Part shown: piece by piece, positions 37,098 through 44,545 of the stretch
Numbering within the stretch: the first letter of the stretch is position 1
How the letters are laid out: each line of letters starts with the position of its first letter
DNA from: Candidatus Babeliales bacterium
Lineage (GTDB): Bacteria > Babelota > Babeliae > Babelales > JANWKD01
Assembly: GCA_963762115.1 (NCBI GenBank)
Contig: CAVXJH010000006.1
Location: 128,001-192,000 of the forward strand
DNA length: 64,000 nucleotides
Reading direction: 5' to 3'
Notes under the pieces: model-generated
Databases searched by the model: none
What the model was told of the DNA's origin: nothing
The model's input: the letters and a program-made list of their open reading frames with translations, nothing else
Made by a program: the position numbers and the translations under genes

Positions 37098-38747
37098 ATG
37101 CAAAAAACAAGTTTGATTGCAAGTTTAATGCTTGCAACTTTATTACAAACAATCTCACTCAAAGCAAATTTACAAGGTGAATTGATACACCTTACTGATA
37201 CCCTCACTGATCTTGAAATGGCATTAAACATACGACCTCAGCCCCAGCCTGAGCCTAGAAGACAAGTTACGCCAGCACCATCAACAACAACTGCATGCCC
37301 TGTAACGCCTCCCGGAAAAACTTTAAGACGCGTACAATCTGCTTACTTACCTAAACAACCCTTGTCTCAATCCGCTGAAACACCCACTGCGAAACCTAAG
37401 CCTGCCCCACAACCAAGAGCAACTCTTGCACAAACAACTCCTCCCGGCGGTATTCCTGTTGCAAAAAAAATAGAACCAGAAGAATCACCCATCGAAAAAA
37501 TTCAACGTTTAGCTAAAGAAAGACAAGAAAGAAGAAAGAGTCTTGGAGCGCCATTAAAACCATTATCAACTCCTGGAGAATTTCAAATACCTACCCTAAG
37601 ACGCAAACAAGTTAGCCCTAAGAAAGAATCAGTTTTAGATATTTTTCAACTGGTAGACCGAGGCGAAGGCCTTCAAAAAGATTTTATAGTCAAAAAAGAA
37701 ATAAAATTACCTAAACCATTAACTACTGGCATCGATCTATTTATTTCACAACAAGTAAATACCTTAAGTACAGCAGAAGATAAAAAAATAACTGCAGCTG
37801 AGATCAATACATTTATTAATACACGAGTTAAAGATAAAGATTCTACAAATAATCAATTGCAAATTTTTAAGGCTTTAGCAACCATTCTTACCATCGATCC
37901 ATTATTAATACAAACAAGTATAGAAACATTGCGTATTATTAATGTACCAAATGAAGATATATATCAATTGATGGCAGAACTTTACACAGGAAGAGTTGAT
38001 TATTTATCATATGAATTTGAACTTATGCAACAAAATTTAACAAAAAATCCAAATCAAGCTCTCCCAAAAGGAACAAGAGACGCTATAGATGAAGGATTAA
38101 CGTATCCAATTGAAATATCGGGTGAAGTGCAAGATGCACAAATTAAAGCAGAAAAAAACAATGATCGGCTTGCAGGAAACTTCTTCAATAATATAAATAT
38201 CCAATGGGAAAGATTGCTATTATTGCTTAGAGGATTATCAGGACAACAAAAAGAAGCATTACGTAAAGAGGGAATCGATATAGATCAATATATCACTAAT
38301 ATAGAAGAGAATAAATTACGAGCTTACTGTCGTTATGATCCAAAGCTTAGAACAAAAGAGTGTCAACCTTATATTTCTTTTTACCAAGAATTAAACAAAA
38401 TGGCACAAGCTGCCAATGATTTCAAGGAAAATAAATCAAAATATAATCGTAGTACAAGAACATTTGCTATCCAAAATATTATTAATAAATTAAATGCTTT
38501 TGCAATATATGCTCAAGATCCTAAAATTTGCCAAGTCTGTCTTAATGAAGATGCACAAAAAGCTAATGAAGAAAACACGAATAATAATTTTGCTGACATA
38601 GAAACATTATTTAATGATCTTCTTGTGCAAGAACCAAGTAACAAAAAATATTCCGAGACGTTAGAAGTAATAGAATCAATTAAAAGTGATGAAGCCAATC
38701 GAAGATCAAAAGTTAGAAGAGGTGGCGTAGGTTATCAATATCAATAA
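37098..38747 (+). CDS. Secreted hypothetical protein (Pro-rich N-half, helical C-half)
   Basis: Signal peptide then NLQGELIHLTDTLTDLEMAL; 549-aa ORF. Confidence 0.8.
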   Translation: MQKTSLIASLMLATLLQTISLKANLQGELIHLTDTLTDLEMALNIRPQPQPEPRRQVTPAPSTTTACPVTPPGKTLRRVQSAYLPKQPLSQSAETPTAKPKPAPQPRATLAQTTPPGGIPVAKKIEPEESPIEKIQRLAKERQERRKSLGAPLKPLSTPGEFQIPTLRRKQVSPKKESVLDIFQLVDRGEGLQKDFIVKKEIKLPKPLTTGIDLFISQQVNTLSTAEDKKITAAEINTFINTRVKDKDSTNNQLQIFKALATILTIDPLLIQTSIETLRIINVPNEDIYQLMAELYTGRVDYLSYEFELMQQNLTKNPNQALPKGTRDAIDEGLTYPIEISGEVQDAQIKAEKNNDRLAGNFFNNINIQWERLLLLLRGLSGQQKEALRKEGIDIDQYITNIEENKLRAYCRYDPKLRTKECQPYISFYQELNKMAQAANDFKENKSKYNRSTRTFAIQNIINKLNAFAIYAQDPKICQVCLNEDAQKANEENTNNNFADIETLFNDLLVQEPSNKKYSETLEVIESIKSDEANRRSKVRRGGVGYQYQ

Positions 38748-39680: not shown

Positions 39681-41207
39681 ATGAAAAAAATTTTAATTAG
39701 TGCAAACCCTTGGCAAACAAAAATTGCCGTTACCCGTGATGATGAACTACAAAATATCTATTTTTCATCGCATGCAACAGAAAACTTAGAACGCTCATTT
39801 TTTAAAGGTACTATCATCAAGGTGCTTCCGGGTATCCAAACTGCTTTTGTTGATATTGGCCAAGAAAAAGCTGGCTTTTTACACATTTCAGAAATCGATC
39901 GTGAAATGGCTCTTCATAAAATGACAAGTACTGTTGAATTGGATGATGAAGAAACAGCGACTCCTGAACCTGAACGACAATCCTATCAAGCTATGGATAT
40001 TGGCAAAATCCTCAAAGAAGGCGAACCTATCTTAGTGCAGGTCAGCAAAGAACCGGTGTATGAAAAGGGTGCAAAACTCACAACATGCTTCACTCTACCG
40101 GGCAGATTTATCGTGCTTATGCCAAATATTCCTCGCATTGCCATTTCTAAAAAAATTGAAGAACGAGAAGAACGACAACGCTTAAAAGAAATTTTGGCTA
40201 AAAATCTTCCTGAGGGCATGGGAGCAATTATTCGAACAACCTCTGACGGAAGACAAGAAAAAGAAATTGCTCAAGATTTACACTTTTTAGTATCAACCTG
40301 GCAACAGATTGAAAAAAAATACAACGAGGCAGAGCGTAAAGAAAAAATTTATGAAGATTTGCCGCTCACGTTGCAAATTGTGCGCGATCATCTTGATGCT
40401 GATGTGGAAGAAGTTATTTCAGACAATCAACAAAATCAACAAGAAATTTATAAATTTGTAAAAAAAATAGCACCAGAATTTAGTTATAAAATTCATTTTT
40501 TTAGTGGCAATCAAGATCTTTTTGATAAATACACCATCAATCAACAACTGCAGCAGTCATTATCCGAAAAGGTACATTTACGCTCAGGTGGTTCAATTAT
40601 TATTGAAACAACTCAAGCAATGACGGTTATTGACGTGAATACCGGACGCTATATTGGTAAAAGTGACCTAGAAGAAACTATTTTAAAAACAAATCTTGAG
40701 GCAGCTGAAGAGATCACCCGACAATTGAGGCTACGCAATATCGGTGGGCTTATTGTTATTGATTTCATTGATATGTCCTCACCGGCAAATCGACAAAAGT
40801 TATTTAAAACCTTTGAAAGAATGCTCAAAGAACGTGATAAATTTCAATCAGTTGTCTTAAAAATTTCTGAATTTGGCCTTGTACAAATGACCAGAAAACG
40901 TTCAGGCAAAACGCTCATTCAAGAATTAACTGAATCATGCCAAACGTGCAAAGGCCTTGGTTATATTAAAACAATTCAAACAATCTGTTTTAATTTATTA
41001 CCAAATATTAAACAAGCATTATATGCAAATAAAGGACACAATATTCTTACCATTGAACTGCATCCAAGAACATTTGATTATATAACAAACCAAGAATATA
41101 ATTCGATTTTTTATTTTGAGAAAAATTTTGGGTGTAAGCTTATTTTGGAAACAAATGACGAAATGCCACTTGATGAATTTAAGATTGTGCGGGAAGAAAA
41201 AAATTAA
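39681..41207 (+). CDS. rng: Ribonuclease E/G family
   Basis: PGIQTAFVDIG, VQVSKEP, AMTVIDVNTG, RLRNIGGLIVIDFIDM, GLVQMTRKR, CQTCKG. Confidence 0.95.
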   Translation: MKKILISANPWQTKIAVTRDDELQNIYFSSHATENLERSFFKGTIIKVLPGIQTAFVDIGQEKAGFLHISEIDREMALHKMTSTVELDDEETATPEPERQSYQAMDIGKILKEGEPILVQVSKEPVYEKGAKLTTCFTLPGRFIVLMPNIPRIAISKKIEEREERQRLKEILAKNLPEGMGAIIRTTSDGRQEKEIAQDLHFLVSTWQQIEKKYNEAERKEKIYEDLPLTLQIVRDHLDADVEEVISDNQQNQQEIYKFVKKIAPEFSYKIHFFSGNQDLFDKYTINQQLQQSLSEKVHLRSGGSIIIETTQAMTVIDVNTGRYIGKSDLEETILKTNLEAAEEITRQLRLRNIGGLIVIDFIDMSSPANRQKLFKTFERMLKERDKFQSVVLKISEFGLVQMTRKRSGKTLIQELTESCQTCKGLGYIKTIQTICFNLLPNIKQALYANKGHNILTIELHPRTFDYITNQEYNSIFYFEKNFGCKLILETNDEMPLDEFKIVREEKN

Positions 41208-41344
41208 GATCAGCCCCGTAGAGGTGAAGATAGTCCAGCCGTCGCTTATCCACGCCTTCAGGCTTGGCAAGCTTGTATGTTAAATCAAAATGATTTTAAA
41301 GCTAAATTTTGTTAATTTATGATCAGTTGTTTTGAAATTAATTG

Positions 41345-41495
41345 TTTGAGAAGCTGATAGATCTCGTGTCAAGCTTGGTCTCAAAGGACCGTGTCATAGT
41401 TTGAGACTATCAGCTTATACAAAAATGACCTCGAACAATCACTAGAGACGTATCAAGTACATACGATCTCGCATGTCTACAAGCCAGAGGTATTT
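41345..41495 (+). ncRNA. IS110 bridge RNA (target- and donor-binding loops; 5' end may extend to ~41285)
   Basis: Two stem/internal-loop/hairpin modules carrying TGTCAAGCT + GTCATAG (target guides) and ACAATCACT + TACAAG (donor guides). Confidence 0.88.
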
Positions 41496-42437
41496 ATGAA
41501 AAATATATCAAAAGTATTTATAGGTGTCGATATTTCAAAAAACACTTTAGATGTTTATATCCATCCAGTAGGAAAATCTTTAAAAGTATCAAACTCAGAA
41601 GTTGGAATAACGGAGATCATTAAAGAATTAGTTAAATATGATATCGAACAAATTGCATGCGAAGCAACTGGTGGGTATGAAAAATTACTTGCTCGAATAT
41701 TAAAAAAAAATTGTTATTATCTTTGGATCATCGATCCAAGAAGAATAAAAGGCTATATTGTTGCTAGTGGCTGCAAAAGCAAAACGGATAAAATTGATGC
41801 TCGAAAAATTGCTGAATTTGCTTCTAAAAATTCTCCTGATTATGAGATAATGAACAAAAGCGAAAATCAAGAAAAATTACAAGCTTTGGTCAATCGTAAA
41901 AATGACTTGGTAAAATTTTTAGTTGCCGAAAAAACAAGATCTAAACATCCATCTCATGCATTATATGCATCAAGTATAAAGAAATTTATCAAAATCTTAG
42001 AGTGCGAAATCAAATCAATTGATTTAAAGATACAAGATTTAATTCAGCAAGATGAAAAATTAAATACAAAATCAAAAATTTTGGAGTCAATTCCAGGAAT
42101 AGGCAAAACTTCAGCTGCAACATTATTATCATTCGTTCCTGAACTTGGTCAAATAAGTAATAAAAAAGTATCAGCACTCATTGGTGTTTGTCCTTATGAG
42201 AATGAAAGTGGAAGTTATAAGGGTAAAAAATTCATCAGAGGTGGAAGAACTATTCCAAGAAATATGCTTTATATGTGTGCATTAACAACTATTAAATATC
42301 ATCTCCCATTAAAGGAACTTTACGATCGTTTAATAACTTCTAAAAAACCTTTTAAAATAGCTATCGTAGCTATTATGCATAAACTTATTGTGATTGCTAA
42401 TTCTTTACTAAAAAAAGGTGAATTATGTAAAGCTTAA
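41496..42437 (+). CDS. IS110 family DEDD recombinase/transposase
   Basis: GVDISK, CEATGGYE, KTDKIDA, SIPGIG, ENESG catalytic Ser loop, RGGR. Confidence 0.97.
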   Translation: MKNISKVFIGVDISKNTLDVYIHPVGKSLKVSNSEVGITEIIKELVKYDIEQIACEATGGYEKLLARILKKNCYYLWIIDPRRIKGYIVASGCKSKTDKIDARKIAEFASKNSPDYEIMNKSENQEKLQALVNRKNDLVKFLVAEKTRSKHPSHALYASSIKKFIKILECEIKSIDLKIQDLIQQDEKLNTKSKILESIPGIGKTSAATLLSFVPELGQISNKKVSALIGVCPYENESGSYKGKKFIRGGRTIPRNMLYMCALTTIKYHLPLKELYDRLITSKKPFKIAIVAIMHKLIVIANSLLKKGELCKA

Positions 42438-42566
42438 TATTGTTTAGCTTTATTAAAAAATATTTGACTTTTAACACAATCACTATGGCGGACAGCTTTC
42501 GCAGACATTTTCTTATCATAAATCATTTAAAAAAATGGCCACGCCAGCTGAAGCCTTGGCGAAAGC

Positions 42567-43022
42567 TGGTGGAGGCGATGGGAATCGAACCCATGTCCGC
42601 ATCATGTCGGACCCAAGGCGCTACATGCTTAGTTTTCGAATATACAAACGATAACCCTCAAAAACAAAAGATGAAATCGTAGGTTAGTTGCGTGATATTC
42701 TTTTGATTACCCAGCTAAGAAGTCTAACAAAAGAATCTTATCTGATATTATACGTGTCAGCTCAACTGATAAGCACGCCTCGCTGACAAGATCAAACAGA
42801 GGTATTAGCAATAGCCAACTACAGAAGATACTTCACTGAAAGCGTTTCTAAAAACGTTTTGAGCTGTAAATACCACTTCATTAGCTAATGTTTTAACTCT
42901 GGTTGATAGACCAATATTTTGATCTGCATTTATTGTTTTTGACCACTTTTTTTACGAGATCTCAGTCAAAACTCGACATGCTCCTTGCGTCATCTATAAC
43001 ACGTCGAAACCTGGACGCCCCC
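42567..43022 (-). ncRNA. ssrA: tmRNA (456 nt)
   Basis: 5' GGGGGCG..GGTTTCGAC and 3' GGGTTCGATTCCCATCGCCTCCACCA forming an Ala-type acceptor stem with G3-U; internal ATAAAT-GCA resume context. Confidence 0.95.
42805..42927 (-). CDS. tmRNA tag reading frame ADQNIGLSTRVKTLANEVVFTAQNVFRNAFSEVSSVVGYC
   Basis: GCA resume codon after ACAATAAAT, 40 codons to TAA. Confidence 0.75.
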   Translation of the reverse strand, partial: ADQNIGLSTRVKTLANEVVFTAQNVFRNAFSEVSSVVGYC

Positions 43023-43142: not shown

Positions 43143-43790
43143 CTATTTTTCTTTCTTCCGAGCTTCATAAACCTGACGGAATTTATCGAGAAAAGTTTCA
43201 TGGGACATTTTTTTTGTAATAAAAGACCAGGTAACATGATCTTCTTCATTTTTAACTTTTTTACCTTCTGTTTGCTCATCAAAAACAATATCAGAATCAA
43301 AACCATACATATTTTCAAATTTTTTGACTTGATCTGAACCTTCAAGGATAATTTCGGTTTCTATATGATCAAGATCACCTTGTTCATCAAAATAAATTTT
43401 ACTAAAAAACTCACTAAAATCTGCCAACTTAGAATGAAATTTATCAATAAAAACTGAGCAGGATTGACTTGGGATCGGTTTTTTAGTCGAATTCATTATT
43501 TGCCATTTTACATTATCATCAGGATTATCTGAAGGCCTCGTCCTAAACCTCAGCACTCCATCTTCTGTAAAACATTTCGGTTTTCGTTCAGTAAAATATT
43601 CCGATTTTCTTATAAAAGCACCTAAATAGTTACTCCATTGATATCTATCACTCCAATATAAATTATGAAAAATTAAAGCATTAGTTATTGATGAACCAGC
43701 CAACTGAAGTTTAGACCTTACCTGTTTCTCTTCCATTGCATTCATTGCTGGAACAATTAAAAAACTGAGCAAAAATAGTATTTTTTTCAT
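43143..43790 (-). CDS. Secreted hypothetical protein
   Basis: MKKILFLL signal peptide, AMNA|MEE. Confidence 0.75.
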   Translation of the reverse strand: MKKILFLLSFLIVPAMNAMEEKQVRSKLQLAGSSITNALIFHNLYWSDRYQWSNYLGAFIRKSEYFTERKPKCFTEDGVLRFRTRPSDNPDDNVKWQIMNSTKKPIPSQSCSVFIDKFHSKLADFSEFFSKIYFDEQGDLDHIETEIILEGSDQVKKFENMYGFDSDIVFDEQTEGKKVKNEEDHVTWSFITKKMSHETFLDKFRQVYEARKKEK

Positions 43791-43865
43791 AACTAACTCA
43801 TAATATGACGGAAACATTACAACAAATATTTTATCTCAATCATTATAAAGAACACGGAATAAAAA

Positions 43866-44440: not shown

Positions 44441-44545
44441 CTGGATCCTCCTTCGCTTCTCCAGGCCTTCCTACTTCGCTCCTACGGAGCTACGAAGGAT
44501 AAATCAGGCTTGGCAAGCTACGGCGGACAGGTCCCCACGATGACA
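44441..44545. repeat. Triple-nested palindromic repeat; contains an empty IS110 target
   Basis: CTGGATCC[CCTTCGC..(CTACTTCGC..GCTACGAAGG)..TGGCAAGCTACGGCGGACAGG]..GATGACA. Confidence 0.8.

Follow-up and report, generated by a model that had tools for sequence, protein, structure and literature searches.

The window analysed here, a stretch of 64,000 nucleotides from a Candidatus Babeliales genome (G000; 1.53 Mb, 34% GC), carries an IS110-type recombinase gene preceded by a long leader, and the question raised by this locus is whether that leader encodes a bridge RNA whose guides account for where the element has inserted. A sequence-only reading of 41345-41495 had proposed that it does, with a target loop and a donor loop of the IS621 type around a CT core, donor ACAATCA-CT-TGTAT and target TGGCAAG-CT-ATGGC; this interpretation, including the assignment of donor and target, is now backed by four more copies of the element and by covariation in 15 RNAs. 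The left end of this five-copy IS110-group (IS621-type) element is thus predicted, with high confidence, to encode a bridge RNA, the loops of which likely pair with the joined ends of the element and with a host repeat, the recombinase inserting at the shared CT.

The insertion sequence and its recombinase

The element spans 41272-42484, from CT (41272-73) to CT (42483-84), a length of 1213 nt made up of a left end of 222 nt, a recombinase frame of 313 aa and a right end of 45 nt (Table 1). It sits between an RNase E/G gene, which ends at 41207, and a tmRNA gene on the opposite strand (window 42567-43022, minus strand; 148 bits, Rfam). A long left end holding the RNA and a short right end (222 against 45 nt) place it in the IS110 group and not the IS1111 group, according to the definition given in PMC11208160. 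The junctions read TGGCAAG-CT-TGTATG at 41265-79 and ACAATCA-CT-ATGGC at 42476-89, and the 2-nt CT is shared by both ends in all five copies and by the empty site, with no longer duplication. For the sub-terminal inverted repeat ATA...TAT of the IS110 group the junction has ACA...TAT (two of three), with AACA/TGTT just outside.

The recombinase scores above the cut-off with each of three profiles (PF01548, 65 bits against 29; PF02371, 56 against 21; NF033542, 190 against 140), and D12, E56, D98, D101, S238 and G239, the positions of which match IS621 residues, are unchanged throughout an alignment of 36 proteins, which comprises the query and 35 of the 120 homologues listed. By sequence, the nearest solved structures are those of IS621 and ISCro4 and no others, and the closest transposase relatives come from genomes of the source's own phylum; viral contigs yielded only four relatives, at approximately 30% identity. 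The recombinase had been described as intact, which holds at the level of sequence, as the frame is open, the catalytic residues are invariant and four more copies carry only one or two differences. Judged on these features, the element is a genuine and recently active IS621-type insertion sequence, sharing nearly all of the defining features examined.

Elsewhere in the window, an 80-aa frame at 42440-42682, on the strand opposite the tmRNA, is likely spurious, and no Pfam match was found for a 549-aa protein (37098-38747, plus strand) or a 224-aa protein (43143-43817, minus strand). An Rfam scan of the window found the tmRNA and one tRNA only, with no family matching the bridge RNA.

Table 1. 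Features of the element, its predicted bridge RNA and the host repeat (window coordinates).
Feature	Position	Strand	Remarks
Left half of host repeat, with left target TGGCAAG at 41265-41271	41237-41271	+	
Left CT core	41272-41273	+	Boundary the same in 5/5 copies
Left end, 222 nt, with right donor TGTAT (41274-78) and the predicted bridge RNA gene	41274-41495	+	
Predicted -10 box TATGTT	41276-81	+	Geometry as in IS621
Predicted AT-rich 5' stem-loop of the bridge RNA	41291-41340	+	Fold -8.4 kcal/mol; this sequence only, outside the relatives' alignment
Target-binding loop; A41361 bulges from the outer stem, 41377-41390 form the inner hairpin	41351-41416	+	Fold and compensatory changes
Left target guide GUCAAG+CU, 7/8 to target; U41367 likely linker	41368-41375	+	
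Right target guide, 7 nt, reads CT-ATG(A/G)(C/T)	41393-41399	+	
Handshake guide UU of the target loop; its first U can pair with A at donor position 7	41400-41401	+	
Donor-binding loop; 41428-32 and 41487-91 form the outer stem, A41466 bulges from the inner hairpin (41445-41470)	41428-41491	+	
Left donor guide ACAAUCACU, 9/9 match to element right end and core	41435-41443	+	
Right donor guide, UACAAG (41478-83) contiguous, 6/6	41473-41483	+	
Handshake guide CC of the donor loop; its first C can pair with G at target position 7	41484-41485	+	
IS110 recombinase, 313 aa, DEDD RuvC domain (D12, E56, D98, D101) and Tnp domain (S238-G239)	41496-42437	+	Profiles and alignment
Right end, 45 nt, with left donor ACAATCA (42476-82)	42438-42482	+	
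Predicted -35 box TTGACT	42464-69 region	+	Spacing of this box conserved in relatives
Right CT core and right target ATGGC	42483-42489	+	CT in 5/5 copies
Empty repeat copy TGGCAAG-CT-ACGGC, a natural control without insertion that departs from the right guide at one base	44511-44524	+	G000:C6:172511

The predicted bridge RNA and its relatives

The strings on which the sequence-only reading was built are all in place: AAGCTGATAGATCTC (41351-65), GAGACTATCAGCTT (41403-16), TGTCAAGCT (41367-75) and GTCATAG (41393-99) in the target loop, and ACAATCACT (41435-43), TACAAG (41478-83) and ACCTC/GAGGT (41428-32 and 41487-91) in the donor loop. Folding recovered the proposed two modules of 41345-41495, with 29 of the 31 named pairs at a probability of 0.97-1.0 and two terminal pairs at 0.78-0.79. 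The z score for 41280-41500 was -3.0, a fold equalled by one of 200 shuffles, and we infer that the RNA starts near 41287-41289. The left target guide had been put at nine bases with eight matches, an extent that is probably one base too long. A ‘CG’ followed by U or C stands before the left target guide in 16 of 16 bridge RNAs, as C47-G48-U49 does in IS621 (PMC11208158), and in eight of the 15 RNAs scored, the window element included, six bases lie between that U/C and the core. It forms a Watson-Crick pair with its own target in one of those eight, the window element itself. The guide is therefore best read as GUCAAG-CU with seven of eight matches, since U41367 stands at the position of the IS621 linker U49 and is scaffold-like in relatives. 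On the donor side, the upstream AU at 41473-74 may add a discontinuous pairing with the right donor like that of IS621. The A-N4-G motifs of IS621 (flipped-A/syn-G), placed by analogy and without an aligned IS621 RNA, are found by position in three of four cases, the exception being GGACCG at 41386-91.

A different account would be that chance matches have accumulated in an AT-rich leader, the fold of which is a hairpin controlling translation of the recombinase mRNA. The likely ribosome-binding site of the recombinase (window 41487-41498) overlaps with the donor-loop stem at its 3' strand, GAGGT (41487-91), in 16 of 16 aligned relatives, and the donor stem may damp translation, possibly limiting that from read-through transcripts. 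However, when 41290-41495 was dinucleotide-shuffled 20,000 times the four guide matches arose singly in 204, 2484, 37 and 1443 shuffles, at least three together in four, and all four in order in none, and an mRNA structure cannot yield covariation with flanking host DNA in other genomes. As the sole explanation, chance with a translation hairpin is refuted by these two results and we give it almost no credence, whilst a dual role, in which a bridge RNA also controls translation, is possible.

The evidence for such covariation comes from relatives of the element. After identical loci were collapsed, 37 were parsed and 10 dropped, either for want of a parsable junction (L204, L203, L186, L190, L188 and L104) or because the target loop was missed by the search pattern (L004, L005, L191 and L102); loci under 38.5% identity were left unparsed. 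Relatives of at least 57% identity provided 26 sites and 16 distinct bridge RNAs, 15 of them with both flanks (L098 is without a left flank), and one site was scored per RNA. The sequence-only reading had suggested aligning homologous left ends as a check, and across the 15 distinct RNAs the guides do change with their own targets: the six bases of the left target guide before the core matched at 64 of 90 positions (shuffled mean 33) and five bases of the right target guide at 64 of 75 (shuffled mean 30), each reached by 0 of 100,000 shuffles, although these and the other shuffle counts overstate the case, as the parsing patterns were written after viewing the sequences and kin are not independent. 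Without the window element the figures are 59/84 on the left and 60/70 on the right (1 and 0 of 100,000 shuffles). In its natural form the right guide has 7 nt and pairs tightly, with 14, 14, 14, 10 and 12 of 15 RNAs matching by position; left-guide matching falls off with distance from the core (15, 12, 10, 10, 9, 8 and 4 of 15 from position 7 to 1). Poor one-sided matches were seen on the left in L183, L100 and L180 (2-3/6) and on the right in L185 (2/5).

Handshake bases, as defined in PMC11208158, covary with the DNA as well. The donor-loop handshake base is complementary to target position 7 in all 15 close RNAs (shuffled mean 9.9; 65 of 100,000 shuffles). Over all distinct bridge RNAs, each of the two loops shows such complementarity to position 7 of the other DNA in 20 of 22, a figure reached by 0 and 23 of 100,000 shuffles. 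The left donor guide changes together with the right end in L202 and L184 (both ACAATTA), L028, L206, L031 and L133; the right donor is invariant in relatives and hence shows no visible covariation. In the scaffold, 11 of 31 pairs have changed on both sides (compensatory changes), a count reached by 0 of 500 shuffles and compared with 1-3 in slid controls; the donor-loop outer stem had no such change. Natural retargeting among these relatives suggests that the recombinase would be programmable, as had been proposed.

Several relatives differ in other respects. The left end of L180, a 70% relative, has an 18-nt tandem duplication of its start, including the core. In L189, L205, L206 and L193 (42% relatives) the right junction has TT in place of CT and the right guide ends in AA, L206 having CT on the left and TT on the right. 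The related elements L002, L003, L014, L096 and L182 target different dispersed palindromic repeats, and genome G001 holds two different elements with different target loops and one shared donor sequence, making cross-mobilisation possible.

When the two ends of the element are joined they read TTGACT, 17 nt and TATGTT, with TG before the second box, and a sigma-70-like promoter is predicted to form at the circle junction in the layout described for IS621 (PMC11208158). This junction promoter is absent from the linear element, in which a promoter scan gave eight sites against 7.1 expected and no terminator, and was uninformative. Sequencing runs were searched as contigs; 20 matched, one with over half of the words, and small shares were excluded as evidence. 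No circle joint was present in contigs of four runs, and those of the single RNA run covered only the tmRNA, contigs being a weak test in both cases. Low read-through expression suffices for excision of IS621 (PMC13626964) and would likely lead to excision of this element as well.

The target repeat and the fifth copy

Five copies of the element are present in G000, 99.8-100% identical and 1-2 nt from the window copy, with all frames open and identical ends; as the copies differ by so little, their spread must be recent. One, at G000:C6:303523-304735, has C261Y at a nearly invariant position and may be impaired. Four copies share the site TGGCAAG-CT-ATGGC within a dispersed hairpin-bearing repeat; the repeat nature of the target, in common with the handshake guides and the junction promoter, did not feature in the sequence-only reading. 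The first three bases of TGGCAAG belong to a small DNA hairpin, as part of its 3' arm (-3.6 kcal/mol for the 25 nt left of the core). A 13-nt search permitting up to one mismatch gave 16 matches, 14 of which are copies of the repeat, and ATG follows the core in all four filled copies and in none of the ten others (Fisher p = 0.001; the copies are not independent). The ten empty copies read ACGGC (3), TCGGC (2), ACGAA (2), TCGTC, TCCAC or ACAGC at this point. The ATGGC form is nowhere empty in G000; it is found empty in 57 of 261 genomes of the phylum and so was not created by insertion. For the filled site in the window (41220-41273 with 42485-42570) there is a paralogous empty site at G000:C3:68967-69097 (92% over 132 nt), which reads ACGGC.

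Scoring of every CT site in the genome, after the elements were removed in silico, gave evidence that is independent of the junctions first proposed. Just five of 148,293 CT sites score 10 or more out of 12 Watson-Crick matches against the two target guides taken together, namely the four filled repeats and one empty site inside a 422-codon frame. It is likely that the 7-nt right guide decides which repeat copies are used in G000, where each copy with ATG is filled and each of the others empty. A REP-associated tyrosine transposase was sought as the source of the repeat and not found; the five Y1_Tnp matches (L220-L224) are near-identical and look like one multi-copy IS200-like element, and by eye the repeat was absent from the three Y1_Tnp flanks examined. 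A contig from a run of another study (X3; depth about 4) lies on 41243-41577 and represents a close variant of the element with six differences. Of the three listed, two lie in the target guides, 41368 G>T in the left and 41396 A>G in the right; with the second of these changes the right guide would match ACG, as found in empty repeats, as if the element had been retargeted.

The RNA could be real and its matches nevertheless relics, the left guide having drifted and the copies having spread by a protein-guided or recombination route. U41369 lies opposite a target G in all four on-target copies, a mispair that is fixed in all five, and one insertion was made without a left match. However, the 1-2 nt between copies indicate recent spread, and filled and empty repeats split on one base which is read only by the right guide. 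A left-guide mispair is present in IS621 too (PMC11208158), and guides in nature depart from their consensus targets at 0-2 positions (PMC11208160). We consider relic guides very unlikely, and a bridge RNA still in use remains the preferred reading.

The insertion without a left match is the fifth copy (G000:C6:253967-255179), which has split an IS481-like transposase gene (above the cut-off for rve_3; 163 bits with NF033577, under the cut-off of 224). This IS481-like element has four copies flanked by repeat sequence, at G000:C5:85127-86319, C3:347542-348878, C3:197475-198823 and C6 ~254000, the last being that interrupted by the IS110 element. The intact copy G000:C5:85127-86319 (99.9% over 1193 nt, gap-free) gives the empty site as GCCTTTG-CT-ATGAT. 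Its left arm agrees with the left guide at one of seven positions, the handshake G, whilst its right arm pairs at five of five; 778 of the 148,293 CT sites do the latter, 203 of them with G at position 7. A donor-like off-target was rejected, with only 2/7 matches to the left donor and 2/5 to the right. The 25 nt left of the core form a hairpin of -7.0 kcal/mol, compared with -3.6 to -4.6 at the on-target sites; in a background of 10,374 sampled CT sites 2.5% fold at -3.6 or lower and 0.17% at -7.0.

These values raise the possibility that the same bridge system also needs a DNA hairpin left of the core to choose its target, as has been reported of ISPpu10 (10.64898/2026.03.19.712850), in which case right guide, handshake base and hairpin could suffice without the left guide. 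Such a requirement would add to the explanation preferred above. All five sites in G000 have a hairpin with left-target bases in its 3' arm, the fifth site ranks second to fifth by hairpin (there being four identical IS481 copies) among 149 G-CT-ATG(A/G)(C/T) sites, and the best empty guide match is missing from the 14 strongest hairpins listed. Against this, 16 of 19 relatives' sites folded weaker than -2 kcal/mol, which rules out the hairpin as a clade-wide rule, and repeats of this kind are palindromic in any case. The 25-nt window was picked once, after the sites had been seen. Furthermore, the off-target is a single event with three identical IS481 sites left empty, and the place of the fifth copy is partly explained by survival in a dispensable gene. 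A hairpin requirement is thus conceivable, but we lean against it.

Half-match insertion, at sites which pair with one arm and the core, has been described for IS621 (10.64898/2026.08.31.748434), and the genomic classes set out in that study omit right-target-only sites, the right guide of IS621 being 4 nt. No further report of natural right-target half-matches was found among the literature matches listed. The fifth copy fits half-match insertion with an ISPpu10-like target hairpin; this is suggestive, and as one event it is a lead only. A more speculative proposal, which we think somewhat doubtful, is that in this Babelota clade stable insertion needs no left-guide pairing, provided that a 7-nt right guide is combined with the handshake base and with a hairpin left of the core. 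The fifth copy would then be a right-target-only half-match and the right guide would lead, the reverse of the long-left/short-right weighting of IS621.

Proposed mechanism and known bridge recombinases

By analogy with IS621, the element would circularise, the circle junction would build the TTGACT-17-TATGTT promoter, and an RNA of approximately 200 nt would be transcribed from it. A recombinase tetramer would hold the donor (ACAATCA-CT-TGTAT) and the target (TGGCAAG-CT-ATGGC) on their respective loops, and S238 would cut beside the core. The top strands would be expected to swap, aided by handshake pairs between U41400 and donor A7 and between C41484 and target G7, giving insertion without loss of bases.

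The closest known system is IS621 of E. coli (PMC11208160, PMC11208158, PMC13626964; PDB 8WT6), which resembles the window element in its DEDD and Ser recombinase, long left and short right ends, CT core, an RNA with a 5' stem-loop, target loop and donor loop, junction promoter geometry, handshake guides, a right donor ending TGTAT-like, repeat (REP-like) targets and the natural left-guide mispair. However, the protein of the window element (313 aa) is distant (phmmer 117 bits, E 1e-32), its guides and target differ, and its right target guide is 7 nt whereas that of IS621 is 4 nt, longer ones being known in orthologues. In the left target guide the conserved G is also one base closer to the core, the left end is longer with an AT-rich 5' part, and the host belongs to the Babelota. 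ISCro4/IS622 (10.1101/2025.05.14.653916; PDB 9T56) has the same architecture and a 14-nt donor/target reading with handshake bases, but its protein is equally distant (116 bits). ISPpu10 and ISPpu9 of Pseudomonas putida (10.64898/2026.03.19.712850; PMC12288879) are IS110 elements which insert into intergenic palindromic repeats, and ISPpu10 shows the tolerant left guide, strict right guide and target hairpin overlapping the left target that are seen here (10.64898/2026.03.19.712850); the hairpin is found at the five sites of the window element but is missing at most relatives' sites. In comparison with the half-match insertions of IS621 (10.64898/2026.08.31.748434), the fifth copy is a candidate for a natural insertion by the right target only, with a guide of 7 nt.

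Bridge RNA architecture, longer natural right guides, handshake guides and repeat/REP targeting are already published, and 5,511 target and 2,201 donor ncRNA pairs have been analysed (PMC11208160). Among the literature matches listed no paper dealt with both IS110 or other insertion sequences and Dependentiae/Babelota, although the clade may be within the thousands of PMC11208160. Approximately a quarter of 72 bridge recombinases screened worked in human cells (10.1101/2025.05.14.653916), and to this pool the window adds a compact (313 aa), recently active and distant orthologue with fully readable guides. G000 provides a clean natural specificity experiment, in which one right-target base splits four filled from ten empty repeats, whilst one copy records an off-target event which bears on the design rules for off-targets, opening no new mechanism.
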